From positions 2,958 to 66,957 of the forward strand of contig JBDRAN010000003.1 of NCBI GenBank assembly GCA_043823745.1: a stretch of 64,000 nt of DNA, written 5' to 3'. This DNA comes from Candidatus Omnitrophota bacterium. GTDB lineage: Bacteria; Omnitrophota; Gorgyraeia; Duberdicusellales; 4484-171. Each line of letters starts with the position of its first letter. The stretch's first letter is position 1. The notes under the pieces were generated by a model. That model did not search any database, had not been told where the DNA came from, and was given only the letters and a program-made list of their open reading frames with translations. The position numbers and the translations under genes were made by a program. Positions 1,686 to 23,392 of this stretch are shown here, piece by piece.

Positions 1686-1710
1686 TACTCTTTTTTATGA
1701 CATCATACGC

Positions 1711-1748
1711 ACCCCAGCTCTTCATGAGCTGGGGTGTTTTTGTTTTCA
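1711..1748 (+). terminator. Rho-independent terminator
   Basis: accccagctc-ttcat-gagctggggt followed by gtttttgtttt. Confidence 0.8.
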
Positions 1749-1873
1749 TACGCACGTTCGCGCTATCGGTACACGGAAGTATGCTTTCCTAAAAGAATTT
1801 GCATTATGCGTCCAGTCACTATATAATAGGTTTTCAGATGCGCATGAGCGCTCTATTACAAAGGGGGATAACG

Positions 1874-2218
1874 ATGTCTGAAGAAAAAAAAGATCTTGGA
1901 CCAACATCGACTGGAATGCAGGCTAATATTGCGGGGCTCCTGTGTTACCTGGTCGGCTTTATCACCGGTATTGTGTTTTATCTTGTTGAGAAAAACAATA
2001 AATTTGTCAGATTTCACGCTATGCAATCAATTATCGCGTTCGGATTCCTTTTCGTAATGGCTACCTTATTGCCGTGGATTCCGGTTATCGGCTGGATACT
2101 AACGCCGGTACTCTGGGTCGTTAACTTAGTGCTCTGGATCGTTTTAATGATAAAGGCATACCAGGGCGAGCTTTTTAAATTACCGATAGCGGGGGATATA
2201 GCCGAGAAAAATTCCTGA
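1874..2218 (+). CDS. DUF4870-like small membrane protein
   Basis: RBS AAGGGGG precedes ATG 1874. Two to three TM helices and an FHAMQS motif typical of DUF4870. Confidence 0.55.
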   Translation: MSEEKKDLGPTSTGMQANIAGLLCYLVGFITGIVFYLVEKNNKFVRFHAMQSIIAFGFLFVMATLLPWIPVIGWILTPVLWVVNLVLWIVLMIKAYQGELFKLPIAGDIAEKNS

Positions 2219-2276
2219 CGCCAAACGGCCGCTCACATACCGATACGCAGAACGTCCGTCTACTCATAAGATTTTG

Positions 2277-2304
2277 TTGACAAAAAAAGAGCTGCTGCTA
2301 TACT
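2277..2304 (+). promoter_or_regulatory. Sigma-70-like promoter of the hydrogenase operon (TTGACA-N16-TATACT)
   Basis: ttgacaaaaaaagagctgctgctatact. Confidence 0.5.
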
Positions 2305-2332
2305 AGGTGAAATTTTTTATTTTTACCCACTA

Positions 2333-2350
2333 TTGTGAATTAATTCACAA
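2333..2350 (+). promoter_or_regulatory. Perfect 18-bp palindrome TTGTGAATTAATTCACAA (CRP/FNR-family type TGTGA-N6-TCACA site) abutting the first hydrogenase gene
   Basis: The palindrome is perfect. It lies between the putative -10 element and ATG 2351. Confidence 0.55.
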
Positions 2351-3379
2351 ATGCAGGAAAAAACGAACGTATTCATTTCTGAAGAAAACTTCATAAAGCT
2401 CTTGGAAAGCCTTTCGCGCGAATACCGGGTGGTTTCCCCGCAAGGAACAGAGAACTTTATGTGGCAAGAAACAACCGCCGCCACGCATAAACCCTATCGC
2501 GCTATCAGTTCCATACGACAATTCCTTATCCCGCCCGTCGAATGGCTCAGCGATTATTTTAAAAACGACTCCGGATCCCATAAGCCCTACTGCATCGTCA
2601 ATGCAAAAAATTGCGATCTCGCATCGCTGGCGACACATGATTTCGTATTCCTGGGAGAGACTCCCGACCAGCGCTACATGGAAATGCGCGAACGCAACCT
2701 CATTATTTCAAGCGACTGTACGTCTTTTAAAAATGTCTGTTTTTGTCTGGCGCTCGATATAAAGCCTTATCCTGAAAAACTTTTTGACCTCAATCTATCG
2801 CCTATCAAAAACGGCTATCTGGTTGAAATCGGCTCAACCAAAGGCCGCGAGACTGTTACCGCTAACCCGGCGCTGTTCCAGGAACCATTAGACGCACAGA
2901 TGCTTGCCCGTCAAGAGATTCGAAAAGAGGTGAATGAACGACTCTGGTATCATCTGAAGTCACAAAATCTTCCTCCAAAACAAGAACTACACCGCTTGAT
3001 AAAAAATGGCTACGAGCATGGAGTCTGGCAGGAAGAATCGACCCGCTGTGTTGAATGTGGCGCGTGTATCATGAATTGCCCCACCTGCCACTGCTTTTTG
3101 CTTTTTGACCAAAAAAAAGAACAGGGTTACCTGAGGGGAAGGGTCTGGGATGGGTGCCAATTAAAAAATTTTACGCGCGTTGCCGGAGGCGCGAATCCGC
3201 TTAAAATGCGCAGCCACCGGCTTCGTAACCGCTATATCAAGAAATTTGAGTTTTTCCCTGATATCATGAACGCATATGCCTGTACCGGCTGTGGACGTTG
3301 CATCGAATGCTGCTCCGGTAAGATCGATTTGCGCCATATCTTTAAGTGTCTGGCCGGAACAGAACCCATAAAAACGTAA
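2351..3379 (+). CDS. FeS subunit, sulfhydrogenase beta (HydB) / anaerobic sulfite reductase AsrA-like
   Basis: Two ferredoxin-type motifs, CVECGACIMNCPTCHC and CTGCGRCIECC. The N-terminal region is typical of HydB/AsrA. It is immediately followed by a HydG/AsrB-like gene. Confidence 0.7.
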   Translation: MQEKTNVFISEENFIKLLESLSREYRVVSPQGTENFMWQETTAATHKPYRAISSIRQFLIPPVEWLSDYFKNDSGSHKPYCIVNAKNCDLASLATHDFVFLGETPDQRYMEMRERNLIISSDCTSFKNVCFCLALDIKPYPEKLFDLNLSPIKNGYLVEIGSTKGRETVTANPALFQEPLDAQMLARQEIRKEVNERLWYHLKSQNLPPKQELHRLIKNGYEHGVWQEESTRCVECGACIMNCPTCHCFLLFDQKKEQGYLRGRVWDGCQLKNFTRVAGGANPLKMRSHRLRNRYIKKFEFFPDIMNAYACTGCGRCIECCSGKIDLRHIFKCLAGTEPIKT

Positions 3380-3385
3380 ATTGTA

Positions 3386-4201
3386 ATGAAAAACATCTAT
3401 TTACCCAAAAAAGTTACGATTACCAAAATTATCGAAGAAACACCGACAATTAAAACATTTGTCTTTAAGCCTGAGTCCGAGTTTTCTTTTTTAACAGGCC
3501 AATTTGTGGAGTTAACATACCCGGGTGCGGGAGAAGCTCCTTTCACACCTTCTTCCGATCCCAGTAGAAAGGATGCATTTGAAATAACAATCATGAAGGT
3601 AGGTACGGTAACTGAGTTATTCCACCGGGCACAGCCGGGAGACGTTCTGGGTATACGCGGACCCTACGGTAAAGGCTACCCCCTGGATACGTTTAAAGGG
3701 AAAGAATTATTGATCGTCGGCGGAGGAGTAGGCCTTGCGCCACTACGCTCTCTTATCTACGCGCTCTATCAACGCATCAATGATTTCAAAAAAATTGTTA
3801 TCTGTTACGGCGCACGCACCCCTCAGGATATCATCTATAAATACCAGATCGATGAGTTCAAGAAGCAAAAAAATGTCGAATTTCGCTTGACCGTCGACAA
3901 GGGGGATCCGGCCTGGAAGGGAAATGTAGGCCTGGTTACCTCGATTCTTACGAATCTACCGATTAATATAAAGGAAGCAGTAGGTATTGTCTGCGGCCCC
4001 CCGATTATGATGAAATTCGCCAACTTAAAACTTCTTGAGCTGGGCTTTGAAACTACAAATATTTATCTTTCTCTGGAGAAAAACATGAGCTGCGGCCTTG
4101 GTAAGTGCGGACATTGCCGCCTCGGCAAATATTACATCTGTAAGGACGGTCCGGTATTTCGCTATGAAGATATTAAGAACATTCACGATGCCTGGGATTA
4201 A
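3386..4201 (+). CDS. FAD/NAD(P)H-binding 2Fe-2S subunit, sulfhydrogenase gamma (HydG) / AsrB / PyrK-like
   Basis: FNR-like FAD-binding barrel, GGGVGLAPL NAD(P)-binding motif and a C-terminal CGLGKCGHCRLG...C 2Fe-2S motif. Confidence 0.8.
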   Translation: MKNIYLPKKVTITKIIEETPTIKTFVFKPESEFSFLTGQFVELTYPGAGEAPFTPSSDPSRKDAFEITIMKVGTVTELFHRAQPGDVLGIRGPYGKGYPLDTFKGKELLIVGGGVGLAPLRSLIYALYQRINDFKKIVICYGARTPQDIIYKYQIDEFKKQKNVEFRLTVDKGDPAWKGNVGLVTSILTNLPINIKEAVGIVCGPPIMMKFANLKLLELGFETTNIYLSLEKNMSCGLGKCGHCRLGKYYICKDGPVFRYEDIKNIHDAWD

Positions 4202-4349
4202 ATCGCTACAGACTGCAAGCCACAAGATTAAAATCCTGTAGCCTGTCCCGTTTCCTATATCGATAGAGCGGGTGCGGGACGCCCCGATCCTTATTATATG
4301 TTTTAGGGGTAACGGGGCTGAAGCTTGTAACCTGAAGCATAAAGAATTT

Positions 4350-4850
4350 ATGAAAAAATTATTTCTCGATTTAGAAAAATGCGACGCCTGCCCCGAGTGT
4401 GTGGTGAAATGCAGCTATATCTACCATCCGCAGAATAACGGCATCGGGAGCATTCGGGAGCTTGCGACCTTCGCGCTGATTTGTCATCGCTGCGAAGAAG
4501 CTCCCTGTGTGAACTCCTGTTATCATAAGGCGCTCGAAAAAGAAACCGATGGTATCGTGCGAAGAGCTAAGATGCTGTGCACCTCATGCAAAACCTGCAG
4601 CATCGCCTGTCCGTTTGGCGTAATATTTCCTGATTTTCTGCAATATCTTGATTCACGCTGCGACTTTTGCATTGGAAAGAAAACTGAACCGGCATGCATA
4701 CTCACATGCCCGTATCACGCGATAGAAACGCGAGAAATAGAGAATGAAGATATCACCCAGGGGATTTATCTTGTTTCTGATATGCTGGCGGTAAAACACC
4801 CCAGGAAATGGTTCCTGGACGACAAGGCGCTCTATATTAAAAAAAGATAA
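4350..4850 (+). CDS. Multi-cluster 4Fe-4S ferredoxin subunit (HycB/HyfA-like)
   Basis: Four Cys-rich cluster motifs: CDACPECVVKC, CHRCEEAPCVNSC, CTSCKTCSIACP and CDFCIGK...C. Start moved to MKKLF at 4350. Confidence 0.7.
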   Translation: MKKLFLDLEKCDACPECVVKCSYIYHPQNNGIGSIRELATFALICHRCEEAPCVNSCYHKALEKETDGIVRRAKMLCTSCKTCSIACPFGVIFPDFLQYLDSRCDFCIGKKTEPACILTCPYHAIETREIENEDITQGIYLVSDMLAVKHPRKWFLDDKALYIKKR

Positions 4851-4852
4851 CG

Positions 4853-5791
4853 ATGTGCCCACGATACCTTCTATATTTTAACTATCTCATTTTTCCCGGA
4901 ATTCTTTTTTCCCTCTTTATGGGGGGTATGGGCTGGTGGTTTGAGCGGAAGCTTACCGCGCGCTTTCAATATCGCGTAGGCCCTCCCTGGTATCAAAGCT
5001 TCATGGATGCAGCCAAACTATTCGTTAAAGAAACACTCATACCTGACAATGCGCTTAAACCCCTCTTTATTGCCGCCCCCATCATAAGTTTCTCCGCGGC
5101 GGCAACTTTTACGGTGCTCGTGGGACAAATTTATTTTACCGGCACAAACCCGGTCGCTGACGCAATCGTTCTCTTATATCTTTTGGTCATACCGCCGCTT
5201 TTTGTAATACTGGGCGCATTTTCATCGCGCAATCCCTTAGCACTGACCGGCGCGGCGCGGGAAATAAAAATGATGCTTGCCTATGAGTTTATTTTTATTA
5301 CGGTTCTTGTCATCGTCATTATTAAATCGGGCGGCTCAATCTTATTTTCCGATATCATCAGTGCCCAAAGCGCTACGCACATGCATATCGCGAGTTTCTC
5401 CGGTGCCATTGCGTTTTTTCTTGGGATTTTTTATATTCAAGCGAAATTGGGAATCGTGCCTTTTGACGTGGCGGAGGCGGAACAAGAAATTATGGCCGGG
5501 ACCATGATTGAATATTCAGGCTCGCTTCTTGGACTGTATCGGCTCGCGAAAATGTTCCTTTATTTTTCACTACCGCTTTTTATCACCATCCTGCTTTTTT
5601 CCGGAACACAGACCACCCTTATCGGAAAAATACTGCACCTTGTAATCGTCTATGGCGTAATAATGCTGATCGTTTCGGTCATAAAGAATATTAATCCGCG
5701 GGCGCGGGTCAAAGATGCCTTGGGATTTTTTTGGTTTTTCTTATTTCCCCTGGGCCTTGTCGGGATTATACTGGCTATGAACGGACTTTAA
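4853..5791 (+). CDS. Membrane subunit, NuoH/HycD/MbhM family
   Basis: NuoH signature ERKLTARFQYRVGP and eight TM helices. Confidence 0.85.
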   Translation: MCPRYLLYFNYLIFPGILFSLFMGGMGWWFERKLTARFQYRVGPPWYQSFMDAAKLFVKETLIPDNALKPLFIAAPIISFSAAATFTVLVGQIYFTGTNPVADAIVLLYLLVIPPLFVILGAFSSRNPLALTGAAREIKMMLAYEFIFITVLVIVIIKSGGSILFSDIISAQSATHMHIASFSGAIAFFLGIFYIQAKLGIVPFDVAEAEQEIMAGTMIEYSGSLLGLYRLAKMFLYFSLPLFITILLFSGTQTTLIGKILHLVIVYGVIMLIVSVIKNINPRARVKDALGFFWFFLFPLGLVGIILAMNGL

Positions 5792-6214
5792 ATGGGCTTA
5801 AAAGAACTCATACTTACTAAATCGCTCTGGGTATTCCACTTAAGCGTGGGCAGTTGTAACAACTGCGACATCGAAATTATTGACTGCCTTACTCCGCGTT
5901 TCGATATTGAGCGACTCGGTATGCAGCTTGCCGCAAGCATCAGACATGCCGATGTGCTGCTCGTTACCGGCGCGCTTAACAAAAAATCGACGCCGATGCT
6001 TAAAAACCTCCTTACGCAGGCACCAAAGCCCTGTTTTGTGGTTGCGGTAGGAACGTGCCCGTGCTCTCGACATATGTTTAAAAACAGTTATAATACCGTA
6101 GCCGCCCTCGATGAAGTGATACCCGTTGATCTTTACATCCCGGGTTGCCCGCCCAAACCCGAAGCGATTATCGCGGGAGTGGCAAAACTTATCAAGAAGG
6201 TGACGCGAAAATGA
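5792..6214 (+). CDS. [NiFe] hydrogenase group-4 small subunit (NuoB/HycG/MbhJ-like)
   Basis: Proximal 4Fe-4S cysteines (CNNC...C...GCPP) of the NuoB fold. Confidence 0.9.
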   Translation: MGLKELILTKSLWVFHLSVGSCNNCDIEIIDCLTPRFDIERLGMQLAASIRHADVLLVTGALNKKSTPMLKNLLTQAPKPCFVVAVGTCPCSRHMFKNSYNTVAALDEVIPVDLYIPGCPPKPEAIIAGVAKLIKKVTRK

Positions 6215-6645
6215 TACAAGAACAAGTCAAAGAAAAGTTAGGAAAAAAAACAACCGACTGGAAGGCAACCAGCAGCCGCAGGATATACTTTACGATCGCG
6301 CAGAAAGATATCAGCGACGTTGGAAAAATCCTGCATAAAGATATGAACATGCGCCTCGCCACGATTAGCGGAGTGGATGAGCAGACGCACTTCGAACTTA
6401 TCTATCACTTCAGCCACGATGCAACAGGAGAGCTGTTCAATGTACGCGTATTGTTAACCGACCGAAAAAATCCATGCATCGATTCACTCTCGACACTCTT
6501 TGAGGCTGCTGACTGGTCAGAACGTGAAATCCATGAGATGCTCGGCATTGATTTTAAGGGGCATCTCAATCTCAAACATCTCTTATTAAACGACGCCTGG
6601 CCCCAGGGAAAATATCCGTTACGAAAGGATTATGTCAATGAGTGA
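6211..6645 (+). CDS. NuoC-like 30 kDa subunit (HycE N-domain/MbhK-like)
   Basis: ATGA overlap with the upstream gene. NuoC-family sequence with FELIYHF and DWSEREIHEMLGI motifs. Confidence 0.8.
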   Translation: MIQEQVKEKLGKKTTDWKATSSRRIYFTIAQKDISDVGKILHKDMNMRLATISGVDEQTHFELIYHFSHDATGELFNVRVLLTDRKNPCIDSLSTLFEAADWSEREIHEMLGIDFKGHLNLKHLLLNDAWPQGKYPLRKDYVNE

Positions 6646-7825
6646 AAAAAAAGTAATACCCATCGGCCCCTATCATCCGCTCCAGGAAGAGCCTGAATTT
6701 TTTAAGCTCATCGTTGAGGGCGAACGCGTTACGGAGCTTATCATCGAGATCGGCTACAACCATCGCGGTATCGAGAAACTGGCGGAGTCAAAACACTGGG
6801 ACCAAGTTGCGTTCGCGGTGGAGCGCATCTGCGGTATATGCTCAACGTCGCATCCCTTTGCCTATGTCTTGGCGGTCGAGGACCTCCTGGGCATTGCCGT
6901 CCCTGAGCGTGCCAGCTACATCCGCATGATCATCGATGAAATGCAGCGTCTCCATTCCCATCTCTTATGGCTTGGCTTGGCCGGCCACTTTATCGGCTAC
7001 AACACTATTTGGATGTGGGCATGGAAAGCGCGAGAGCCGATCCTTGATCTTTTTGAACACATCACCGGCAACCGCCAGCATTATGCAATGATGAAAATAG
7101 GAGGAGTTCGCCGTGATATCAGAGAAGAGGACTATCCGGCGATACATAAAGCGCTTAAGGAACTCTATCCTACGCTTACCATGTTTGCCAAAGCTGTTAA
7201 CGATGACCCGGTAATACAGAAGCGCACCAAAGATGTCGGTATTTTAACAAAAGAGAAAGCGATTTCCTTTGGCGCGCTGGGCCCCATTGCCCGCGCTTCC
7301 GGCGTTGATATTGATGTCCGTCGAGATGACCCCTACGCGCTCTACGCGAACGTAAATTGGTCGGTCGTAGTCAAAGACAGTGGCGACATCTATGATAAGG
7401 TTCTGGTACGGATCCTTGAGATGTTTGAATCCTGTTCTATTATCCAGCAGTGCGTAACCAAGATCCAACCAGGCCCCATAGAGACGGAAGTCAGGGATAT
7501 ACCGCCGGGAGAAGGCATCGGCAGGGTAGAGGCCCCGCGTGGCGAATGCTTCCATTACGTAAAAAGCGACGGTACCAACAGGCCGGTACGCCATAAAATA
7601 AGAGCGCCCTCCTTGATGAATGTTCCTACTAACCTGGTTACTGTTCCCGGGTATACTATTTCTGACGCAGCGATCACTCTGGCAGCGGTGGACCCCTGTT
7701 ACTGTTGCACCGAACGAAGCGCTGCATTCAGCAAAAACGGCAAAAAAATATTTACCGGCGAAGAACTCGTTGCGCTCTCAATCGAAAAAACAAACCAACT
7801 ACGTAAACAGTATGATAACCAATAA
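6632..7825 (+). CDS. [NiFe] hydrogenase large (catalytic) subunit, group 4 (NuoD fold)
   Basis: N-terminal RICGICSTSH and C-terminal DPCYCCTER Ni-Fe ligand motifs. A roughly 30-aa C-terminal extension follows, the usual maturation-protease substrate. Confidence 0.9.
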   Translation: MSMSEKKVIPIGPYHPLQEEPEFFKLIVEGERVTELIIEIGYNHRGIEKLAESKHWDQVAFAVERICGICSTSHPFAYVLAVEDLLGIAVPERASYIRMIIDEMQRLHSHLLWLGLAGHFIGYNTIWMWAWKAREPILDLFEHITGNRQHYAMMKIGGVRRDIREEDYPAIHKALKELYPTLTMFAKAVNDDPVIQKRTKDVGILTKEKAISFGALGPIARASGVDIDVRRDDPYALYANVNWSVVVKDSGDIYDKVLVRILEMFESCSIIQQCVTKIQPGPIETEVRDIPPGEGIGRVEAPRGECFHYVKSDGTNRPVRHKIRAPSLMNVPTNLVTVPGYTISDAAITLAAVDPCYCCTERSAAFSKNGKKIFTGEELVALSIEKTNQLRKQYDNQ

Positions 7826-9437
7826 TCTATTCCTGGTTGATCCGCTCTCCATATTAATAAGCATTTGTATCTGCTTCTTTACGGTTATCCTCTTTATCTT
7901 TTCGCTCGGCTTCATAAAAACGCAAAGATTTACATATTACACCTGGTTCTTCGCAACTGCCGTAGCCTCCCTTGGTGTTGTTCTCTCAAACCATCTTATC
8001 GCTATTCTCGTCTTCTGGGGATTCCTTGGCCTCGCAATTTTTAAGCTCATTAACGTGTGCCCAGATGCAGAGGCCGCCCGTGCCGCAAAAAAAACATTGA
8101 TTATCATTGGGGGAACTGACGCTTTCCTTTTACTCGGATTTCTTTTATACATGAAACTCGCTGCCTCTACATTTATCACCGGAACATCACTTGCAATACA
8201 CGACTCTCAAACGCTTCTAGCATTTCTCTGTATCGCGGCAGGCGCGTTTGCAAAAGCAGGGTGCATGCCGTTTCATACCTGGATTCCCGATACCGCGGCA
8301 AGTGCACCAGTGCCGGTCGTTGCCTACCTGCCGGCATCGCTTGATAAACTCCTGGGAATCTATCTCCTTATACGCATCGCCAAAGATACGTTTATACTGA
8401 ATGCAACTGCCCAAGGAATCCTTTTCCTTGTCGGGTCAATGACCATTTTATGCGCGGTAATGATGGCGCTCGTTCAACACAATATTAAGCGACTCCTGGG
8501 CTACCATGCGGTATCTCAAGTTGGCTACATGATTCTTGGGATCGGCTGCGCGAGCCCCCTTGGGTTTGCCGCAGCACTTTTTCATATGATTAATCACGCG
8601 ATATATAAATCATGCCTATTCCTCGCTGCCGGAAATGTGGAAAAGCAAACGGGAGCAACCGAAATGGATAAGTTGGGCGGACTAGCAAAGTATATGCCGA
8701 TAACGTTTATTGTTACCTTAATTGCTTCCTTTTCCATTTCAGGCATTCCGCCGTTTAACGGCTTTGTCTCAAAATGGATGGTCTATCAGGGCCTGATAGA
8801 GTTCGCGCAAAGAATCACTTCACTGAAACTACAGATCCTTGCGATTGGAGGCCTGGTTATCGCGCTGGCAGGTTCGAGCTTAACGCTTGCCTCATTCTTA
8901 AAATTAAACTATGGCGTATTTTTAGGAAGCCCGCGCGCGAAAACAAAAGAAGCACGTACAATGCTTCTGATCGCGCCCGTTATTCTTGCCGGCCTCTGTG
9001 TCATTTTCGGAATTTTTTCTCGATACCTGATAATGCCTGTTCTTGTCAGCAGCGTAGGCTATTTTATCTTACCGGGGCTTTGGAACCCCCTCTTAATCAC
9101 TACACTCATTGTCGCGGGCATACTCATCGGCTTTATCTTATTCACTTTTACCGGGAAAAAATTGCGGCAAAGCCCCTCGTTTATCGGCGGAGAACCGCTT
9201 GCGCCAGCAGAGGAAGTCCGGATTGAGGATTTTTATAATACAATAAGAGAATTACGAATACTGAAACGTATTTATCGGCTGGCCGAAGAGAAATTCTTTG
9301 ATATATACGACCAAAGCTCAAATTTTGTTTTCGGAATAGGCAGGTTTTTCCAGTATCTGCATAACGGCGTTTTGCCGACTTATCTAGTCTGGACGCTTTT
9401 AGGCATGATCGGCTTGTTTTTTGTGCTGCTAAGATAA
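7812..9437 (+). CDS. Antiporter-like membrane subunit (MrpA/MrpD/NuoL family)
   Basis: Fourteen or more TM helices and NuoL/MrpD-type conserved motifs. The start at 7812 overlaps the large-subunit stop. Confidence 0.8.
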   Translation: MITNNLFLVDPLSILISICICFFTVILFIFSLGFIKTQRFTYYTWFFATAVASLGVVLSNHLIAILVFWGFLGLAIFKLINVCPDAEAARAAKKTLIIIGGTDAFLLLGFLLYMKLAASTFITGTSLAIHDSQTLLAFLCIAAGAFAKAGCMPFHTWIPDTAASAPVPVVAYLPASLDKLLGIYLLIRIAKDTFILNATAQGILFLVGSMTILCAVMMALVQHNIKRLLGYHAVSQVGYMILGIGCASPLGFAAALFHMINHAIYKSCLFLAAGNVEKQTGATEMDKLGGLAKYMPITFIVTLIASFSISGIPPFNGFVSKWMVYQGLIEFAQRITSLKLQILAIGGLVIALAGSSLTLASFLKLNYGVFLGSPRAKTKEARTMLLIAPVILAGLCVIFGIFSRYLIMPVLVSSVGYFILPGLWNPLLITTLIVAGILIGFILFTFTGKKLRQSPSFIGGEPLAPAEEVRIEDFYNTIRELRILKRIYRLAEEKFFDIYDQSSNFVFGIGRFFQYLHNGVLPTYLVWTLLGMIGLFFVLLR

Positions 9438-9443
9438 ATTTTT

Positions 9444-9983
9444 ATGGAACTGCATATATTATTATTATTTATGATTATTGGTGCAATTGTGGCGATTGAA
9501 GCTCGGGATCTCTTGTCGAGCGTAATTGCCATAGGCGCGGTAGGTTTTGCATTATGTTTAGCTTTCTTGGTTTTAAAAGCGCCAGATTTAGCGATTACCC
9601 AGTTAGTAGTGGAGATTCTTTGTTTGATTATTTTAATCCGCGCAACCATTAAGAGAGATTTACCTTTGACTATTGAAGGCCGTTGGATCTTTAACACACT
9701 TTCGACGTTAGCGTTCATTGCGGTATTTCTTTTCTTCGCCTATAATGCGCTGCAAGAATTACCGGCTTTTGGAAATCCCATCATGAGGGTGGTACAGAAA
9801 TATTTTGAAGAAGGGGTTAGTAAAACCGGGGCGGTAAACCTCGTTACGGCTGTAATCCTTGATTTTAGAGCCTATGATACCTTAGGCGAAGCCACGGTAT
9901 TATTTACTTCGGTAATCGGCATTATGGCAGTTTTGCGCCAACGGGGAAGAAAAAAAATAGAGGAGACCGAGGATGATCGATAA
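9444..9983 (+). CDS. Mrp/Mbh membrane subunit (MnhB N-domain-like, DUF4040)
   Basis: Polytopic small subunit in a conserved Mrp-module position. Confidence 0.55.
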   Translation: MELHILLLFMIIGAIVAIEARDLLSSVIAIGAVGFALCLAFLVLKAPDLAITQLVVEILCLIILIRATIKRDLPLTIEGRWIFNTLSTLAFIAVFLFFAYNALQELPAFGNPIMRVVQKYFEEGVSKTGAVNLVTAVILDFRAYDTLGEATVLFTSVIGIMAVLRQRGRKKIEETEDDR

Positions 9984-10422
9984 TCCTAAAACAGGGATGT
10001 CTTTAATTGTAAAGACCATTACCCGCCTAACCATAGGCTTGATACTAATTTTTGGCATCTATATTGTTTTACACGGCCATCTCTCTCCGGGGGGCGGATT
10101 TGCGGGAGGCGTAATTATTGCTCTTTCTTTTGTGCATCTTATGCTTGCGTTTGGCAAAGAGGCAGCGCTCAGCAAGATTACCAAAAATACCGCCGCCAGT
10201 TTAGAAAGTATCGGCGCTCTAATGTTTTTGTCTATAGCTTTATTGGGATTTTTGGGAGGATCATTTTTTCTAAATTTCATCGGCAAAGGGAAACCATTTC
10301 ATTTATTGAGCGCCGGAACTATTCCTTTAAGTAATATAGCAATCAGCTTAAAAGTGGGAGTAGGATTGTTTGCGATATTTTTAGCATTAACAGTACTAGA
10401 AGGGGTAAAGAAGAAAGATTGA
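9973..10422 (+). CDS. MrpB/MnhB-like subunit
   Basis: MnhB signature HGHLSPGGGFAGG. Confidence 0.7.
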   Translation: MIDNPKTGMSLIVKTITRLTIGLILIFGIYIVLHGHLSPGGGFAGGVIIALSFVHLMLAFGKEAALSKITKNTAASLESIGALMFLSIALLGFLGGSFFLNFIGKGKPFHLLSAGTIPLSNIAISLKVGVGLFAIFLALTVLEGVKKKD

Positions 10423-10475
10423 CCAATACGACTACTTGTACGGGTCAATGGCGCCAGAGGTAGCCAGCAAGAATC

Positions 10476-10814
10476 ATGAGCCTTTATTTTTTATGTTTAG
10501 CTTTATTTTGCGTGGGCCTTTACGGGGTGCTACGCAAACGAAACCTGGTTAAAATAATCATAGGCTTAGGAATCATAGAATATTCCATGAACCTATTTTT
10601 TGTTTTATTAGGTTACCGCGCGCACGGCCGCGCGCCCATTGACGCACAAGATCAAAACATTTTAACTATGGTTGATCCGCTCCCTCAAGCATTAGTGCTT
10701 ACCTCGATCGTCATCGGTTTAGGGGTTACGGCGTTAGTTATTTCGATCGCGGTCAGGATTTATGAAAAATACGGCACCTTTGATATCACAAAAATAAAAA
10801 AACTTAAAGGTTAA
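10476..10814 (+). CDS. MrpC/NuoK-like subunit
   Basis: Three-TM protein of about 110 aa with a NuoK-like profile. Confidence 0.7.
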   Translation: MSLYFLCLALFCVGLYGVLRKRNLVKIIIGLGIIEYSMNLFFVLLGYRAHGRAPIDAQDQNILTMVDPLPQALVLTSIVIGLGVTALVISIAVRIYEKYGTFDITKIKKLKG

Positions 10815-12320
10815 ATGCATAACGCAAACATTATTCCTTTTTTTGTCATTATACCGCTCCTGTGCGCCTTTTTGGTTTCTCTTTTAGGTAGATACTTAAA
10901 ACGTACTTTTGTTCATTCGCTCTCAGTGATCTCCTGCTTTTTGCTGATGCTTCTTTCTTTTTACAGCCTGTATATTTTACGCAGCAACCCGACTTTGGTT
11001 TATAAAATTGGCGGGTGGCTTCCGCCCTTTGGTATTTGCATGGTCTTAGACGGCTTAAGCTGTTTTATGCTGATAACCGTAAATCTGGTTGCTTTCTTTG
11101 TCTGTATATATTCGCTGAGCTATATGGAAAAATATACGGATAAGCCAAAGTTTTATACTTTGTTTTTCTTAATGCTGACCGGCATGAACGGCTTAATTGT
11201 AACCGGGGACTTATTCAATCTCTTTGTCTTCTTAGAAATTGCTTCAATCGCTAGTTACGCATTAGTTGCTTTCGGCACCGAGGCAGAGGAACTCGAAGCA
11301 GCTTTTAAATATACCATTATGGGCTCGGTTGCTTCCAGTTTCATTTTCATCGCAATTGCGTTCTTGTACGGCTTTACTTCCACCCTGAATATGGCTGATA
11401 TGGCGCAGATTTTAAGCGCAAAACCAAATACGTTCCTTATTCCTTTTGTGTCTGTGCTTTTTTTAATGGGTTTTGGGTTAAAGGCAGCCCTGGTGCCTTT
11501 TCATGCCTGGCTTCCCGATGCGCACCCTTCCGCGCCTGCCTCGATATCTGCTATGCTTTCAGGCGTTTTAATCAAGGCTTTGGGTGTGTATGCGTTAGTG
11601 CGTATTTTCTTTAATATTATTGGTGTTACCAACGGTTTCCTCTCGACTTTAATGTTTTTGGGGGCACTTTCAATGCTGGTGGGAGTAATTTTAGCGCTTT
11701 CCCAATGGGATTTAAAAAGGCTCCTCGCATACCACTCCATAAGCCAAATTGGCTATGTAGTGTTAGGTATTGGCTTAGGCACGCCCTTGGGGATATTGGG
11801 CGGCTTGTTTCATCTCTTTAATCATTCCATATTTAAATCTCTGCTTTTTTTAAACGCTGGGGCGATAGATTATGCTACGGGCACACGCGAGTTAAAGGAA
11901 ATGTCCGGCCTAAAAGAAAAAATGCCTATAACCTCTAATACTAATCTCATTGCCTCAATGTCTATTGCGGGAATCCCGCCGTTTAACGGTTTCTGGAGCA
12001 AACTTATCATTATTTTAGCCTGCGTGGAAACGGGCCATATTGGTTATGCGATCGCAGCAGTGCTTGGCTCTATTTTAACCTTAGCAAGTTTTATGAAAGT
12101 ACAAAAGTTTGCCTTCTTAGGTACACTGAGAGAAAAATATAAAAATATTACAGAAGTTCCTTTTACGATGAAGGTATCTATGATTTGTTTAGCCATAATA
12201 TGCATTTCCGGCGGACTTTTATTATTGCCGTCTTTTAAGTTTTTCCTTAATGGCGCCGTCAATACAGTGTTGGAAAGCAGAAACTATGCCACACTAGTTT
12301 TTGAAGCAGCTTTAAAATGA
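10815..12320 (+). CDS. Antiporter-like subunit (MrpD/NuoN family)
   Basis: About 500 aa and 14 TM helices, with the conserved PFHAWLPDAH motif. Confidence 0.8.
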   Translation: MHNANIIPFFVIIPLLCAFLVSLLGRYLKRTFVHSLSVISCFLLMLLSFYSLYILRSNPTLVYKIGGWLPPFGICMVLDGLSCFMLITVNLVAFFVCIYSLSYMEKYTDKPKFYTLFFLMLTGMNGLIVTGDLFNLFVFLEIASIASYALVAFGTEAEELEAAFKYTIMGSVASSFIFIAIAFLYGFTSTLNMADMAQILSAKPNTFLIPFVSVLFLMGFGLKAALVPFHAWLPDAHPSAPASISAMLSGVLIKALGVYALVRIFFNIIGVTNGFLSTLMFLGALSMLVGVILALSQWDLKRLLAYHSISQIGYVVLGIGLGTPLGILGGLFHLFNHSIFKSLLFLNAGAIDYATGTRELKEMSGLKEKMPITSNTNLIASMSIAGIPPFNGFWSKLIIILACVETGHIGYAIAAVLGSILTLASFMKVQKFAFLGTLREKYKNITEVPFTMKVSMICLAIICISGGLLLLPSFKFFLNGAVNTVLESRNYATLVFEAALK

Positions 12321-12811
12321 AAAGCAGAATTGTATTATTCATTTTTGGTTATGTTATTTGGATGCTTTTAGGCTGGTCGCTTGATTTTGCCAACGCTGTA
12401 GTGGGTATTTTTGTAGCAGGGCTTGTTGCTATGTTAACCGGTGATATGTTTAGCCGCAGGCCACATCACTTTAGCCACCTCAGTAGATATTTATGGTTTG
12501 CGTATTATGTTCCGTTATTTCTCTGGGAATGCCTTAAGGCAAATATTGATGTAGCCCTGCGGGTAAGTAATCCAAGATTACCCATCAATCCCGGTATCGT
12601 CAAGGTTAAAACAACGTTAAAATCAGATACTGCCCTTACTTTTCTGGCAAACTCCATTACGCTTACGCCGGGCACTTTTTGCGTAGATATAAACCCTAAA
12701 GAGAGCATTCTCTACATCCATTGGCTTCACGTTAAATCCCAAGATCAACAGAAGGCAACACAACTAATTGTAGATAAATTTGAGAAGGTTTTAAAAAAAA
12801 TATTTGAATAA
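12317..12811 (+). CDS. MrpE/MnhE-like subunit
   Basis: Size, TM pattern and position match MnhE. Confidence 0.6.
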   Translation: MKSRIVLFIFGYVIWMLLGWSLDFANAVVGIFVAGLVAMLTGDMFSRRPHHFSHLSRYLWFAYYVPLFLWECLKANIDVALRVSNPRLPINPGIVKVKTTLKSDTALTFLANSITLTPGTFCVDINPKESILYIHWLHVKSQDQQKATQLIVDKFEKVLKKIFE

Positions 12812-13182
12812 TGAAATTAAAATATACATATCTTAGCTGGTGCTTAGGGTTATTAGCTATATCCACGATATTATTTTTTATCAGTTTCTACCCGGTACCG
12901 TCACTCCTACGATGGCAATCACCAATACTTTCGCGCTGCTTTTTCATCTTAATGATGTGCTTCGGCATATGTTTGTGGCGGATAATACGGGGGCCAACTG
13001 CGGCTGACCGGGCAGTGGCTATAGATACTATTGGTATTTTGATTGTAGGCTTTTGCGCCATTCTCAGTATCTCCACTGCAAGAGATTGGTATATTGATAT
13101 TGCGATTGCCTGGGCACTGCAAAGTTTTATCGGAGCGCTCGCTTTGGCTAAATACTTGGAAGGCAAAGGGTTTGATGAATAG
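12811..13182 (+). CDS. MrpF/MnhF-like subunit
   Basis: Small three-TM protein in the MrpF position. Confidence 0.55.
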   Translation: MKLKYTYLSWCLGLLAISTILFFISFYPVPSLLRWQSPILSRCFFILMMCFGICLWRIIRGPTAADRAVAIDTIGILIVGFCAILSISTARDWYIDIAIAWALQSFIGALALAKYLEGKGFDE

Positions 13183-13226
13183 TACTGTCCACGCGCTATA
13201 AGACGAGATGTAAAACGGAGAAAACG

Positions 13227-13565
13227 ATGAACGAAATTATCGGATACATATTTATCGTAGTCGGGTTAGCTTTTGATATATTTGGCTGTGTCGGCCTAAT
13301 CCGCCTTCCTGATGTATACACCCGTCTGCAAGCAACTACCAAATGCGTTACGTTAGGCACGTGCAGTATTCTTGTGGGCACCATCATTATCAAAGGTTTT
13401 ACGGGCACCGGAATAAAGGCTTTTTTATGCATAATATTTTTGCTTTTAACTGCTCCCGTTGCCGCACATGCGCTTTCTCGCGGCGCGCACGCGGCGGGAG
13501 TAAAACTCTGGGAAAAATCAGTTTGCGATAAATACGCTGATGATAAAAAAACAAAGAAAATCTAA
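13227..13565 (+). CDS. MrpG/MnhG-like subunit
   Basis: MnhG signature LIRLPDVYTRLQATTKCVTLG. Confidence 0.75.
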   Translation: MNEIIGYIFIVVGLAFDIFGCVGLIRLPDVYTRLQATTKCVTLGTCSILVGTIIIKGFTGTGIKAFLCIIFLLLTAPVAAHALSRGAHAAGVKLWEKSVCDKYADDKKTKKI

Positions 13566-13581
13566 ATTGAACGGGTAAGAT

Positions 13582-14184
13582 ATGAAATATCCAAAATTAA
13601 GAGAAATCAAGGGCGCGTTACAATCTTTATTTACGAAAGCCTATACCGCAAAGTTTCCCTTTGCGCCCCATACGCCTTCTGCGCATTTTCGGGGAAAACC
13701 TTATTATGATGAAGAAAAATGTATCGGCTGCACTGCGTGCGTCAATGTCTGCCCATCCGGAGCATTGAGCTTTGATGATGAAAGCTCCAAGGAAAACGCC
13801 CTGCGGAGACTTACCGTGCGTTGGGATATCTGTATCGAATGCGGCCAGTGCCAGCTTAATTGTCCGACCGAAGAAGGTATAAAGCTTTCTGGGGAGTTTG
13901 ATATCTCGACCACCGAAAAGCGGGATGATCTGCATCAAAATATCGAAAAAGAAATGGTAATCTGCGAACATTGCAACAGTCCGATTGCATGCAAAGACCA
14001 CATTGTCTGGACCATACAAAAATTAGGGCCACTCTACACCACCAACACTTCCCTAATAAACTTTCAGCAACAATCTCTCCAGGCCGGCGATACAATTCCA
14101 AAAAAAGAAAACACCATCGGACGATCCGATCGTTTTAAGGTCCTGTGCCCGGCCTGCCGCAGAGAAGCAGTGTTTAGTTCATAA
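13582..14184 (+). CDS. NuoI-like 2x[4Fe-4S] subunit (HycF/EchF/MbhN-like) with a Cys-containing C-terminal extension
   Basis: CIGCTACVNVCP and CIECGQCQLNCP motifs. The extension carries extra CEHC...C and CPAC cysteines. Confidence 0.8.
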   Translation: MKYPKLREIKGALQSLFTKAYTAKFPFAPHTPSAHFRGKPYYDEEKCIGCTACVNVCPSGALSFDDESSKENALRRLTVRWDICIECGQCQLNCPTEEGIKLSGEFDISTTEKRDDLHQNIEKEMVICEHCNSPIACKDHIVWTIQKLGPLYTTNTSLINFQQQSLQAGDTIPKKENTIGRSDRFKVLCPACRREAVFSS

Positions 14185-14227
14185 ACGCTAATTACCGCTA
14201 ATCTAAAAACGCTAATAACCGCTAATA
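14185..14227 (+). repeat. Direct repeat aacgctaatWaccgctaat x2 (CGCTAAT motif family)
   Basis: Related inverted copies occur at 18268-18320 and 21130-21150. Confidence 0.6.
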
Positions 14228-14241
14228 AAAAAATCACGCCC

Positions 14242-15345
14242 ATGCAAAAAACGCCCCGATGTCTGGCTTTCGATCTCGGTAAGGTGATTTTTGATTTTGA
14301 CTATACGGTTGCGCTCGAACGCATCAAGAATGACATCACGGTGCCCATCGAAAAGGTGCTGGATGAAGTCTTTATGAATAATTGTTTCCTTGATTTTGAA
14401 AAAGGGCTCGTTTCAGACAAAGAGTTTTACGCGCAATTTATCCGTACCTTCGGCTCATCGATTTCCTATGGTAGATTCGTTGATATCTGGTCTGATATTT
14501 TTACTCCTAAACAGGAAATTATCACGCTCCTGGGCCGGCTGCGTCTGCTATACCCGCTGTACCTGGTCTCAAACATCAATGAATTGCACTACGAACATCT
14601 ATACCGCAAACACCCCGATGTTTTTGGCCTTTTCAATGGGCTCCTGCTTTCCTATCAATTAAAATCACTAAAGCCGGAAGAGAAATTTTACGCGCATCTA
14701 AAAAAAGTAAGCGGTTGCGAATACCGGGAAATCGTCTATGTTGACGACCGCAAAGATTTAATTGACGCCGCGCAAAAACTTAACCTTGCCTGTATACTGT
14801 TCCAGGATTTCACGACGCTTCTTGAGGGCCTCGTGCAGGCGGGAATAGAAATTCCTACTGGCGCTGAAGCGAATACGCTCACCAGGCTACGAAACACTCT
14901 CTCCGGCGCAAAACGCCCACTCATTGTCGGTATCGGAAACACGATGCGCGCTGACGATGGGGCAGGTGCCGTGATTGCTGCGACACTTGTTGGCGCCATC
15001 AACATCACCGTCATCAACGCCGGCGCATCAATTGAAAATTATCTTGGAAAAATTGACCATTACAATCCTGACTGCGTCATTATTGTTGATGCGGCTGAGT
15101 TCCAGGAACATGAACGCTTCGCGCTGTATGACGTAGGTATGCTACAAAACATCTCTTTACATCTTACACATGACTCGTCGCTGAAACTGGCTCTTACCTA
15201 CTTGCAAAATATAAAACCCTCTGATATACTGATTTTGACGATTAGGCCAAAAACATTCACACTCGGCGCGCCGATGAGTGCTGACGTACATACGACCGTG
15301 GAAATTCTTAATACATTTTTCTTAAATAATTTTCGATTATCATGA
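14242..15345 (+). CDS. Fusion protein: N-terminal HAD-superfamily hydrolase domain + C-terminal hydrogenase maturation endopeptidase (HycI/HybD family)
   Basis: The N-terminal half has DxD-type HAD motifs (FDLGKVIFDFDYT, YVDDRKD). The C-terminal roughly 150 aa carry a HycI-like GIGNTMRADDGAGAV motif and look HycI-like throughout. Confidence 0.7.
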   Translation: MQKTPRCLAFDLGKVIFDFDYTVALERIKNDITVPIEKVLDEVFMNNCFLDFEKGLVSDKEFYAQFIRTFGSSISYGRFVDIWSDIFTPKQEIITLLGRLRLLYPLYLVSNINELHYEHLYRKHPDVFGLFNGLLLSYQLKSLKPEEKFYAHLKKVSGCEYREIVYVDDRKDLIDAAQKLNLACILFQDFTTLLEGLVQAGIEIPTGAEANTLTRLRNTLSGAKRPLIVGIGNTMRADDGAGAVIAATLVGAINITVINAGASIENYLGKIDHYNPDCVIIVDAAEFQEHERFALYDVGMLQNISLHLTHDSSLKLALTYLQNIKPSDILILTIRPKTFTLGAPMSADVHTTVEILNTFFLNNFRLS

Positions 15346-23379: not shown

Positions 23380-23392
23380 TTTTTTTTAAATT

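Follow-up and report, generated by a model that had tools for sequence, protein, structure and literature searches.

The window analysed here is a 64,000-nucleotide stretch of genomic DNA from a Candidatus Omnitrophota bacterium. Sixteen genes, packed tightly and read in the same direction (2351–14184, + strand), encode a hydrogenase with an Mrp/Mbh-type arm and a flavoprotein module. The best promoter-like site of the region has its −35 box at coordinate 2277, and the stop codon of the last operon gene, hunP, is at 14184. The features of the region are as follows.

2277–2304, +: promoter-like site, TTGACA-16 nt-TATACT with TG-extended −10 (consensus match only)
2333–2350, +: putative Rex-type operator TTGTGAATTAATTCACAA, immediately before the hunA start codon (0 mismatches to TTGTGAANNNNTTCACAA)
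2351–3379, +: hunA, AsrA/SHI-beta-like iron-sulfur protein, 342 aa (Pfam Fer4_22, 7e-26)
3386–4201, +: hunB, AsrB/SHI-gamma/PyrK-like flavoprotein, 271 aa (Pfam FAD_binding_6, NAD_binding_1, DHODB_Fe-S_bind)
4202–4349, +: hunB–hunC spacer, 148 nt, structured (fold of 4199–4352)
4350–4850, +: hunC, HycB/HydN/CooF-like polyferredoxin, connector subunit (Pfam Fer4_11; NCBIfam HydN, AegA, DmsB-like)
4853–5791, +: hunD, NuoH/MbhM/HycD-like membrane subunit (Pfam NADHdh, 1.1e-56)
5792–6214, +: hunE, NuoB-type hydrogenase small subunit (Pfam Oxidored_q6, 3.9e-29)
6208–6645, +: hunF, NuoC-type subunit (Pfam Complex1_30kDa, 2.6e-28)
6632–7825, +: hunG, [NiFe] large subunit (Pfam Complex1_49kDa and NiFeSe_Hases)
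7812–9437, +: hunH, NuoL/MrpA/MbhH-like antiporter-type subunit (Pfam Proton_antipo_M, 2.6e-56)
9444–9983, +: hunI, MbhD and MbhE fusion (Pfam MbhD 5e-17, MbhE 2.7e-9)
9973–10422, +: hunJ, MnhB-like subunit (Pfam MnhB, 9e-27)
10476–10814, +: hunK, MnhC/NuoK-like subunit (Pfam Oxidored_q2, 1.2e-27)
10815–12320, +: hunL, MnhD/NuoM-N-like antiporter-type subunit (Pfam Proton_antipo_M 3e-68, Proton_antipo_N)
12317–12811, +: hunM, MnhE-like subunit (Pfam MNHE, 2e-44)
12811–13182, +: hunN, MrpF-like subunit (Pfam MrpF_PhaF, 1.4e-17)
13227–13565, +: hunO, MnhG-like subunit (Pfam PhaG_MnhG_YufB, 1.8e-24)
13582–14184, +: hunP, HycF/HyfH/NuoI-like 2x[4Fe-4S] subunit (NCBIfam PRK12387 105 bits, HyfH 92.5; Pfam Fer4_7 and others)
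14242–15345, +: HAD-phosphatase::HycI fusion gene, 3′ of the operon (Pfam HycI and HAD)

The domain calls made by eye in an earlier note on this DNA were all upheld in Pfam and NCBIfam, and the matches lie beyond chance, with E-values of 1e-17 to 1e-71. The operon opens with sulfhydrogenase beta/gamma-like genes, as their Fer4_22 and FAD_binding_6, NAD_binding_1 and DHODB_Fe-S_bind domains show; both databases also agree with the note on a HycB-like polyferredoxin, on NuoH-, NuoB-, NuoC- and NuoD-type subunits, on MrpB/C/E/F/G-like and NuoI-like subunits, and Proton_antipo_M marks the two MrpD-like antiporter subunits (7812–9437 and 10815–12320). The Mrp module is likewise present, with one gene more than the seven of the note: the MbhD/E fusion at 9444–9983 went unlisted there, and the total is eight. 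The note could not assign the arrangement to a described group-4 subtype. It corresponds one to one, in gene order, module assignment and CGIC...CYCC signature, to the 16-subunit 'Hun' supercomplex (HunA–P), whose HunG falls into HydDB group 4g and whose hosts include Atribacteria, Firmicutes, Omnitrophica, Elusimicrobia and Kosmotoga (Glass et al. 2021, bioRxiv 10.1101/536078). Because of this match, the presence of Omnitrophica among the reported hosts and the position of hunA and hunB 5′ of the core in relatives, the region almost certainly represents the hun operon of an Omnitrophota bacterium and encodes the 16-subunit Hun complex. The hun-type gene arrangement is thus not new, having been described in 2021; related clusters with asrA/asrB, cooF and Mrp genes were noted in 2019 (PMC6349859), and a 2026 paper ties the SHI-beta/gamma homologues of group 4 clusters to NADPH / NADP(H) (PMC13582414). 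The operon is common in Omnitrophota and other anaerobes; species-level genomes contain at least 593 stretches that match it.

Both Cys motifs of HunG, L1 RICGICSTSH and L2 DPCYCCTER, are invariant in 81 sequences, and the protein carries a HycE-like C-terminal extension of 35 aa. In the PDB it matches MbhL (6cfw_L, 3e-86) and HycE (7z0s_E, 2e-74), the HycE alignment being full-length and including the tail, and a protein 100% identical to it is present in an NCBI Omnitrophica MAG. HunE conserves the Cys stretches CNNCD and PGCPPKPE and, in part, GTCPCS, while HunP has a Cys-rich C-terminal half with an additional CxxC...CxxC kept in relatives. The HAD::HycI protein exceeds the NCBIfam hydrog_prot cut-off (66.9 bits against 47.45) and scores 63.2 for hycI; this fusion, seen only in the three closest loci, is likely the C-terminal endopeptidase of the large subunit, and its gene would belong functionally to the operon. 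Since both motifs are invariant, the extension is HycE-like and a HycI-type protease gene adjoins the operon, the predicted HunG complex is a genuine group-4-type [NiFe] hydrogenase, as the earlier note had maintained. To this core (HunD, E, F, G and P) the domain assignments would add an Mrp/Mbh-type ion-translocating membrane arm, HunH to HunO, with two antiporter-like subunits (the NCBIfam matches of HunH include hydrogenase 4 subunit B and MrpA/D), and a peripheral electron-input arm in which the polyferredoxin HunC carries the FeS protein HunA and the flavoprotein HunB.

HunA scores 145.7 bits for ShyB, 144.1 for HydB and 104.3 for AsrA, each far under the equivalog cut-off, and HunB 237.6 for AsrB (cut-off 288.6) and 194 for HydG, so that both stay under every NCBIfam equivalog cut-off. 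Their top PDB matches are two subunits of one enzyme, P. furiosus sulfhydrogenase 1 (SHI): the beta subunit for HunA (9nez_B, 7e-38) and the NADPH-binding gamma subunit for HunB (9nez_C, 5e-58, full-length alignment). HunC shows four Cys motifs in translation, the first poorly conserved among relatives, and its most likely start codon is ATG 4350, the point from which orthologues align; this placement leaves the 148-nt spacer 3′ of hunB, against a median gap of 13 nt in relatives. The fold that includes the spacer (4199–4352) has an MFE of −52.8 kcal/mol (z = −4.1 versus shuffles); the spacer is specific to the source genome, neither the rest of the window nor 80 loci having another copy. Such a spacer, together with AsrB as the top model of HunB, could suggest that hunAB is a separately transcribed AsrAB-type sulfite/sulfur reductase beside an unrelated Mbh-type operon, a possibility the earlier note had left standing. 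We regard it as close to refuted and give it hardly any credence: no promoter-like or terminator-like site was found on the + strand of the spacer, no asrC/siroheme subunit was found in the window, HunA and HunB miss the AsrA and AsrB cut-offs, and the order hunA-hunB-hunC-hunD is kept across phyla in all 60 related species-level loci whose upstream DNA is long enough to be informative (median gaps −4, 13 and 0 nt). The constant presence of the HydB/HydG-like pair, the tiny gaps and the lack of such sites before hunC or of asrC argue that hunA-hunB belongs integrally to the operon and is transcribed with it. The note had asked whether these genes are conserved at the 5′ end of homologous operons; because they precede the core in all 60 loci of the already described type, Hun (4g) is a described subgroup whose operons routinely include both, an outcome that the note itself had named as refuting its observation.

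The FAD, NAD(P) and [2Fe-2S] motifs of HunB (GEAPFTPSS, GGGxGxAPL and CGxGKCGHC...C) are at least 80–95% conserved in 68 sequences from several phyla. Because of this conservation, and because HunB and HunA align to SHI gamma and beta, the pair can be read as an NAD(P)H module, and NAD(P)H coupling is a reasonable, plausible reading of HunB. The E. coli formate hydrogenlyase (FHL) route FdhF → HycB → HycF → HycG → HycE offers a model for the wiring, as HunC matches HydN/HycB-type proteins and HunP matches the FHL subunits HycF/HyfH in NCBIfam (PRK12387 being the FHL iron-sulfur subunit); on this model HunAB would substitute for formate dehydrogenase. Electrons would then pass from NAD(P)H to FAD and [2Fe-2S] in HunB, to [4Fe-4S] in HunA, and on through HunC, HunP and HunE to the Ni-Fe site of HunG. 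We lean, by a modest degree, towards NAD(P)H as the physiological partner of Hun, and as the weakest central step it sets our confidence in the favoured explanation as a whole. In Ace Lake Omnitrophota, where each MAG has one hydrogenase, of group 3b, 3d, A3 or 4g, the types other than 4g are without exception NAD(P)-linked, which we count as support for NAD(P)H, together with the link to NADP(H) drawn in the 2026 paper.

An outward pump requires a donor near −450 to −500 mV, and a large pumping arm is better suited to a low-potential donor than to NAD(P)H. The published reading makes Hun a ferredoxin-dependent, Mbh-like pump, in which reduced ferredoxin feeds HunABC, protons are reduced at HunG, the energy exports H+ or Na+ through the Mrp arm for ATP synthesis, and the NAD(P) site of HunB has a regulatory role or is a vestige. 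It was put forward by Glass et al. 2021 (bioRxiv 10.1101/536078) and taken up in Omnitrophota and Auribacterota papers, HydDB lists group 4g as putatively ferredoxin-coupled, and the assumption of reduced ferredoxin by the Hun authors and later MAG papers weighs against an NAD(P)H donor. However, characterised ferredoxin-dependent Mbh lacks the flavoprotein and polyferredoxin input module that Hun has, the strongly conserved HunB motifs are hard to square with a vestigial site, and the premise that ferredoxin donates to AsrAB is not established, AsrB being an NAD(P)H-flavin reductase-type protein. We therefore consider a ferredoxin pump possible, if rather unlikely. Less probable still is a three-way redox hub in which a third low-potential partner, ferredoxin or another substrate, joins NAD(P)H and H2; such a hub would be either a confurcating system or an ion-coupled ferredoxin:NAD(P)+ oxidoreductase whose outlet is the hydrogenase. 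Some hun operons have a molybdopterin-domain protein between hunB and hunC, and a branched FeS network with bifurcation/confurcation was proposed from AlphaFold models of related group 4 clusters with SHI-beta/gamma homologues and a catalytically dead Fdh-like subunit (PMC13582414). The window operon has no Fdh-like subunit, and a linear FeS chain would not couple two donors energetically. Flavoproteins of the PyrK/AsrB type are not known to carry a bifurcating flavin, and the FAD that bifurcates in NfnAB belongs to the other subunit.

The promoter-like site matches the consensus at 11 of 12 positions and is the best-scoring one within 1600–16600. Between it and hunA lies the only site in the 64-kb window with two or fewer mismatches to the Rex consensus TTGTGAANNNNTTCACAA (taken from PMC5317091 and PMC6391272). 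By the same threshold, boxes occur upstream of hunA or of a rex-hunA pair in 28 of 62 related loci, with three elsewhere in 1.17 Mb; 22 of the 62 have one within 300 nt upstream of hunA, as against 3 of 1222 control windows (Fisher p = 4e-28), six more have it upstream of rex-hunA, and the remaining 34 have no recognisable box. A rex gene, verified by Pfam PF06971 and PF02629, lies directly upstream of hunA in 14 related loci; none was found by these models within the window. The TGTGA-N6-TCACA core also occurs in some CRP/FNR-family sites. Given the perfect operator, the enrichment upstream of hunA and the adjoining rex genes, the hun operon is probably under Rex control, and the predicted operator is a new point beyond the published description of Hun. 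Rex targets are derepressed at high NADH, and the operator suggests that expression responds to NADH and that Hun evolves H2 to dispose of reductant. In Caldicellulosiruptor bescii the targets repressed by Rex include the ferredoxin-dependent Ech hydrogenase, which is also in keeping with a ferredoxin pump; Rex control therefore supports reductant disposal and not specifically NADH as substrate.

NADH-driven H2 formation is uphill under standard conditions, by about +18 kJ/mol from textbook potentials, and outward ion pumping by it is doubtful except at very low H2. The reverse is downhill by about as much at 1 bar H2, and where H2 is high an NAD(P)-linked enzyme could pump outward in this direction alone. 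Hun might thus oxidise H2, reduce NAD(P)+ and export ions, conserving energy in H2-rich settings, as the reversibility of SHI-type modules and the Wood-Ljungdahl pathway of some Omnitrophota with a 4g/Mrp enzyme would allow; yet an uptake enzyme that reduces NAD+ would need the reverse of derepression at high NADH, and H2 is far under the required level in most source habitats, which makes uptake very improbable. In the favoured, NAD(P)H-linked direction the membrane arm most likely lets an ion gradient drive the reaction, or operates near equilibrium at low H2. If NADPH has a reduced in-vivo ratio and H2 does not exceed about 10 Pa, the energy could suffice to export roughly one ion per H2. 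An Nfn/Sud-type transhydrogenase, which Williams et al. 2021 report in nearly all Omnitrophota MAGs of their study, could keep NADPH reduced. Transcription from the site at 2277–2304 would be blocked by the NADH/NAD+ sensor Rex on 2333–2350, and its release in an over-reduced cell would lead to production of the Hun complex, which may act as a redox valve passing NAD(P)H-level reducing power to H2.

The sixteen genes hunA–hunP occupy the forward strand of the window at 2351–14184, where they overlap or are separated by very short gaps. Each of the domain calls made by eye in the earlier note is upheld by Pfam and NCBIfam, and all the subunits it listed stand, although its list left off an MbhD+MbhE fusion. 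The coordinate 2277 at which that note began the operon falls at the −35 box of the top promoter-like site of the region. The operon is real and intact, and the domain-level reading is correct.

Products of the hun operon and the gene downstream of it, as assigned with Pfam and NCBIfam
hunA product, + strand: AsrA/HydB-like protein with a Fer4_22 domain
hunB product, + strand: AsrB/HydG/PyrK-like protein with FAD, NAD(P) and [2Fe-2S] domains
hunC product, + strand: HycB/HydN/CooF-like polyferredoxin
Core subunits, + strand: NuoH-, NuoB-, NuoC- and NuoD-type proteins
Antiporter-type subunits, + strand: two Proton_antipo_M proteins
MbhD+MbhE fusion, + strand
Mrp-type subunits, + strand: homologues of MnhB, C, E, F and G
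hunP product, 13582–14184, + strand: HycF/HyfH/NuoI-like protein
HAD::HycI fusion gene, 14242–15345, downstream of the hun operon

This architecture is that of the Hun complex of Glass et al. 2021 (bioRxiv 10.1101/536078), in which HunAB are AsrAB-like and without AsrC, HunC is an FeS protein, HunEFGP constitute the hydrogenase module, HunDHILK the P-module and HunIJKLMNO the Mrp-like module, and HunG carries the signature CGIC...CYCC. The window operon shares the sixteen genes in one-to-one order, the module assignment, the CGIC and CYCC motifs, the AsrAB-like pair without AsrC, and an Omnitrophica host. It differs in nothing structural, adding a 148-nt structured hunB–hunC spacer and the downstream HAD::HycI fusion. 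Judged by this match of features, the operon belongs in the published Hun family as an ordinary representative from Omnitrophota, and its arrangement is thus already known; the view in the earlier note that it could not be assigned to a described subtype falls, on that note's own terms, with the gene-for-gene match.

Glass et al. (bioRxiv 10.1101/536078) place HunG in HydDB class 4g, yet distant from other 4g enzymes, and the literature portrays HydDB subgroup 4g as a loose, polyphyletic cluster. Their hosts include Atribacteria, Firmicutes, Omnitrophica, Elusimicrobia, Bacteroidetes and the cultured Kosmotoga, and their reference HunG is NCBI RXG63129 from Atribacteria E10H5-B2. Among the related loci, L035 matches the window in gene order, and the two large subunits are 68% identical; the isolate name of L035, 1244-F3-H4-B3, follows the naming by Glass et al. 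of MAGs from ODP Site 1244, and cluster look-up identifies its large subunit as MQY66435.1, not RXG63129. A 'Group 4g, Mrp-linked' hydrogenase has been reported in Omnitrophota (Williams et al. 2021), and Matheus Carnevali et al. 2019 (PMC6349859) noted a group 4 cluster, termed 'enigmatic', that includes Mrp, cooF, asrA and asrB and has its nearest relatives in Zixibacteria and Omnitrophica. The literature searched contained no other papers on 'Hun' beyond Glass et al., and for the combination of AsrB, Mrp and NiFe it yielded nothing besides PMC6349859.

The large subunit retains both of the Ni-Fe cysteine motifs claimed for it, RICGICSTSH and DPCYCCTER, and the CGIC (L1) and CYCC (L2) motifs are invariant in 81 sequences. 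A NuoD-related large subunit with both CxxC pairs and a NuoB-type small subunit with the proximal-cluster cysteines place the enzyme in [NiFe] group 4. The nearest solved relatives of HunG are MbhL (6cfw_L, 3e-86) and HycE (7z0s_E, 2e-74); the match to HycE continues into the C-terminal tail, the part that HycI cleaves off. Judging from full-length sequence matches in the PDB, the folds of the single Hun subunits are already settled. No hyp genes were found among the window ORFs scanned; they may sit elsewhere in the genome. HunP has an additional conserved CxxC...CxxC in its C-terminal half, beyond its two ferredoxin-type motifs, and this extra cysteine pair could be a further metal site. The gene at 14242–15345 joins an N-terminal HAD-family phosphatase domain (glucose-1-phosphatase-like in NCBIfam) to a HycI-type maturation protease, a fusion seen only in the three closest loci, L002–L004.

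A comparison with two solved group 4 enzymes places the input arm in context. Like P. furiosus Mbh (group 4d, 6CFW), Hun combines a NuoB/C/D/H/I-like core with MbhA-I/Mrp-type subunits, but it has two antiporter-like subunits where Mbh has one, and the L2 motif reads CYCC in HunG, CLSC in MbhL and CYSC in HycE. Mbh takes electrons directly from ferredoxin, whereas Hun has an added three-subunit input arm, HunABC; the docking of ferredoxin on a core free of dehydrogenase or connector subunits that defines Mrp-Mbh enzymes is at odds with the presence and conservation of HunA, HunB and HunC. With E. coli FHL (group 4a, 7Z0S), Hun shares a HycB-like connector, a HycF-like subunit, a large subunit that aligns with HycE as far as the cleaved C-terminal tail, a nearby gene for a HycI-type protease and the general logic of a membrane hydrogenase with a soluble dehydrogenase plugged in. 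In contrast to FHL, Hun is without FdhF or a molybdopterin subunit and has an SHI-beta/gamma-like flavoprotein pair instead, while FHL-1 is without an Mrp module. Neither the operon nor the window ORFs include an ORF with a molybdopterin domain, which separates Hun from the Fdh-bearing FHL enzymes (4a/4b).

The earlier note took the HydBG-like genes to open the operon, and their position is borne out across relatives. Gene order was followed by tblastn of all 17 window proteins against 80 loci and subsequent measurement of the gaps; hunA and hunB lie directly upstream on the same strand in 60 of the 60 loci in which 4.6 kb or more of sequence precedes the large subunit. Median gaps in the relatives are −4 nt (A–B), 13 nt (B–C) and 0 nt (C–D). 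In the window the hunB–hunC gap is 148 nt (4202–4349), and a scan of its + strand found no promoter-like or terminator-like site. The alternative that hunAB encode a separate AsrAB-type reductase has in its favour that HunB scores highest against the AsrB model, yet HunA reaches 104.3 bits against the AsrA model (cut-off 323) and HunB 237.6 bits against AsrB (cut-off 288.6), which leaves the pair outside AsrABC, and no asrC-type, NIR_SIR or siroheme protein is found among the window ORFs scanned. Because hunAB adjoin the operon with tiny median gaps in all 60 of these loci, the + strand of the spacer shows no such promoter or terminator and the window ORFs scanned include no asrC, we reject this reading.

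The hunB–hunC spacer itself folds strongly (4199–4352, −52.8 kcal/mol, z = −4.1). It occurs in this genome alone, relatives having ~13 nt at that place, and since blastn against the window and the 80 loci returned no second copy, an origin from a repeat or mobile element was rejected.

Operons of this type are widely spread. When one genome per GTDB species was scanned, at least 593 stretches matched; the best 80 loci share 62–80% identity, and their MAGs carry the labels Omnitrophota, Elusimicrobiota/Endomicrobia, Clostridia, Planctomycetes, Auribacterota, Nitrospirota and FCPU426. The large subunit is 100% identical to one in an NCBI 'Candidatus Omnitrophica' MAG; the next 119 matches listed are 66–86% identical, and those carrying organism names are all Omnitrophota. 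Mrp genes are absent from five of the related loci (L049, L050, L071, L073 and L076), which keep HunABC and the core and have only hunH and hunP downstream, and from L058, which likewise keeps HunABC and the core and in which only hunP was detected downstream. Since these variants retain HunABC, the flavoprotein arm is more constant across relatives than the antiporter arm. Some related operons carry a third antiporter-like gene. Other insertions include a PhoU-domain gene between hunG and hunH (L049 11193–11810, L071 11140–11829, L010 11193–11813; absent from the window), a gene for a CBS-pair protein between hunC and hunD in Endomicrobia-type operons (L074 7797–8174, L080 6621–6995) and a gene for a TPR protein between hunB and hunC in the Auribacterota operon L058 (6355–7110).

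The nearest solved relative of HunB, aligned over its full length, is the NADPH-binding gamma subunit of P. furiosus soluble hydrogenase I (SHI; 9nez_C, 5e-58), and that of HunA is the SHI beta subunit (9nez_B, 7e-38). The layout of FAD/NAD(P)/[2Fe-2S] and FeS domains is the same as in SHI beta/gamma (group 3b, 9NEZ), but HunAB belong to a membrane-bound group 4 enzyme and not with the group 3 alpha/delta subunits. HunA scores 145.7 and 144.1 bits against the ShyB/HydB-type NCBIfam models (cut-offs 690 and 750), and HunB 194.4 and 174.4 bits against the HydG/ShyC-type models (cut-offs 650 and 600). Their kinship to group 3b sulfhydrogenase beta/gamma, as read from these scores, is at the superfamily level only; HunA and HunB make up a family of their own inside the SHI/Asr superfamily, far under all NCBIfam HydB/G, ShyB/C and AsrA/B equivalog cut-offs. 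Across 68 HunB sequences from several phyla, conservation is 80–100% for the flavin motif, the NAD(P) motif rich in glycine and the [2Fe-2S] cysteines, which argues for functional nucleotide binding. A 'GART..D' segment of HunB is similar both to SHI-gamma and to the NADH-binding NfnA, and so fits NADH as well as NADPH.

The likeness of HunC and HunP to HycB and HycF, the links between Fdh and hydrogenase in FHL, leads us to infer an FHL-like wiring in which HunAB would replace FdhF. By homology, electrons would pass from NAD(P)H to FAD, the [2Fe-2S] cluster, the HunA clusters, HunC, HunP, HunE and finally Ni-Fe. On the boldest reading, HunAB would act as an NADH-input module and Hun would in effect be a 'complex I that reduces protons'. 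Comparable clusters are those of Saganbacteria RX5A (PMC6349859) and the 'group 4b' clusters (PMC13582414), which share an AsrAB/SHI-beta-gamma pair and a CooF/HycB-like protein before a group 4 core with antiporter subunits, but which have an extra molybdopterin/Fdh-like subunit (a dead Fdh in PMC13582414) that is absent in the window. A bifurcating mechanism has been proposed for these molybdopterin/Fdh-bearing clusters, and a 2026 paper (PMC13582414) proposes an NADP(H) link for group 4 clusters with SHI-beta/gamma homologues. The published reading, by contrast, has ferredoxin as the Hun donor, and Glass et al. (bioRxiv 10.1101/536078) mention neither NAD(P)H nor Rex. We regard ferredoxin as the sole donor as rather unlikely, and consider it slightly more likely than not that NAD(P)H is a physiological partner. 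The Omnitrophota MAGs of Williams et al. 2021 have one hydrogenase each, of type 3b, 3d, A3 or 4g; because the alternatives to 4g are NAD(P)-linked, this pattern weighs slightly in favour of Hun being NAD(P)-linked too. The same study found a Sud enzyme in nearly all of its Omnitrophota MAGs.

Evolution of H2 from NADH costs approximately 18 kJ/mol under standard conditions (textbook potentials) and is slightly favourable only below roughly 10–100 Pa H2, so under ordinary conditions it cannot drive outward ion pumping. We know of no pyridine-nucleotide-using, membrane-bound, ion-coupled hydrogenase that has been demonstrated biochemically. The large membrane arm could be accommodated in three ways: the ion gradient may drive H2 formation from NADH; the donor may be NADPH, held highly reduced by an Nfn/Sud-type enzyme, at low H2; or the true donor may be ferredoxin, as published.

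Upstream of hunA, between the promoter-like site and the start codon, lies a candidate operator for the NADH/NAD+ sensor Rex, TTGTGAATTAATTCACAA at 2333–2350. It is a perfect match to the Rex consensus TTGTGAANNNNTTCACAA, as quoted in PMC5317091 and PMC6391272, and the sole window site with at most two mismatches. A box with at most two mismatches lies 18–69 nt upstream of hunA in 22 of 62 related loci, compared with 3 of 1222 random 310-nt windows (Fisher p = 4e-28). Across 64 hunA-bearing loci totalling 1.17 Mb there are 31 such sites, 28 of them upstream of hunA or of a rex–hunA pair, and a Rex-type box precedes the hun operon in 28 of 62 related loci. In 14 loci a rex gene sits directly upstream of hunA on the same strand (an approximate Rex query was used; five matches were confirmed by Pfam PF06971 and PF02629). 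Where rex adjoins hunA the box is placed upstream of rex, which is apparently autoregulated in some genomes. Loci with a box, an adjoining rex or both include L002, L024, L032, L033, L035, L042, L044, L053, L059, L064 and L070; the window ORFs scanned include no rex gene. Ravcheev et al. 2012 is the primary source on the Rex regulon, and the two papers named above quote it for the consensus.

The Rex regulons of anaerobes such as C. bescii and Caldithrix abyssi similarly have an operator of this type before hydrogenase operons, with rex directly upstream in some genomes, but the known cases are [FeFe] bifurcating and Ech hydrogenases, not hun, and we found nothing in the literature searched that connects Rex with hun. 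As Rex leaves DNA at high NADH/NAD+ according to the Rex literature cited, hun is predicted to be expressed in the over-reduced cell. Such control would fit an H2-evolving redox valve and count against a primary role in H2 uptake. The link is no proof that NADH is the Hun substrate: the Ech of C. bescii depends on ferredoxin and is likewise under Rex control.

Elsewhere in the window, a Fur-family regulator gene is followed by genes for a TonB-dependent receptor, ExbB, ExbD and TonB (22966–27901), with a second TonB-dependent receptor at 41825–43831; these constitute outer-membrane uptake machinery in an Omnitrophota genome. The only tRNA gene is tRNA-Arg (CCT) at 28137–28211 (+). A cobalamin riboswitch (28536–28758, +, 92 bits) precedes a radical-SAM/SPASM gene (29669–31069), and farther downstream (31090–37719 and 38383–41070) are a cobalamin salvage/lower-ligand operon (CobC-like phosphatase, CobU, CobT, CobS, CobD aminotransferase, CobQ, CbiB) and a B12-type ABC importer. 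A c-di-GMP-I riboswitch (61015–61160, −, 62 bits) has no obvious same-strand ORF downstream, and a PilZ-STAS protein is encoded at 45047–45799.

With the Hun arrangement already known, the remaining interest lies in the donor question and in the Rex link found here, both of which concern the whole family and not the window in particular. Several hundred species-level genomes of uncultivated anaerobes carry operons of the Hun type, and metabolic reconstructions routinely show Hun as a ferredoxin-dependent Mbh; in surveys of sulfur cycling, hunA and hunB could be tallied wrongly under 'anaerobic sulfite reductase' or 'sulfhydrogenase'. The Rex link offers a simple, testable handle on the timing of Hun synthesis. 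We tentatively propose, at somewhat short of even confidence, that Hun is a Rex-controlled, NAD(P)H-linked, ion-coupled hydrogenase which, in Omnitrophota, Atribacteria, Elusimicrobiota and others, works with an Nfn-type transhydrogenase to carry electrons of NADH and ferredoxin to H2 in place of confurcating [FeFe] hydrogenases. If the conserved flavoprotein arm truly trades electrons with NAD(P)H, models of H2 production, redox balance and energy yield for sediments, aquifers and digesters would need revision.
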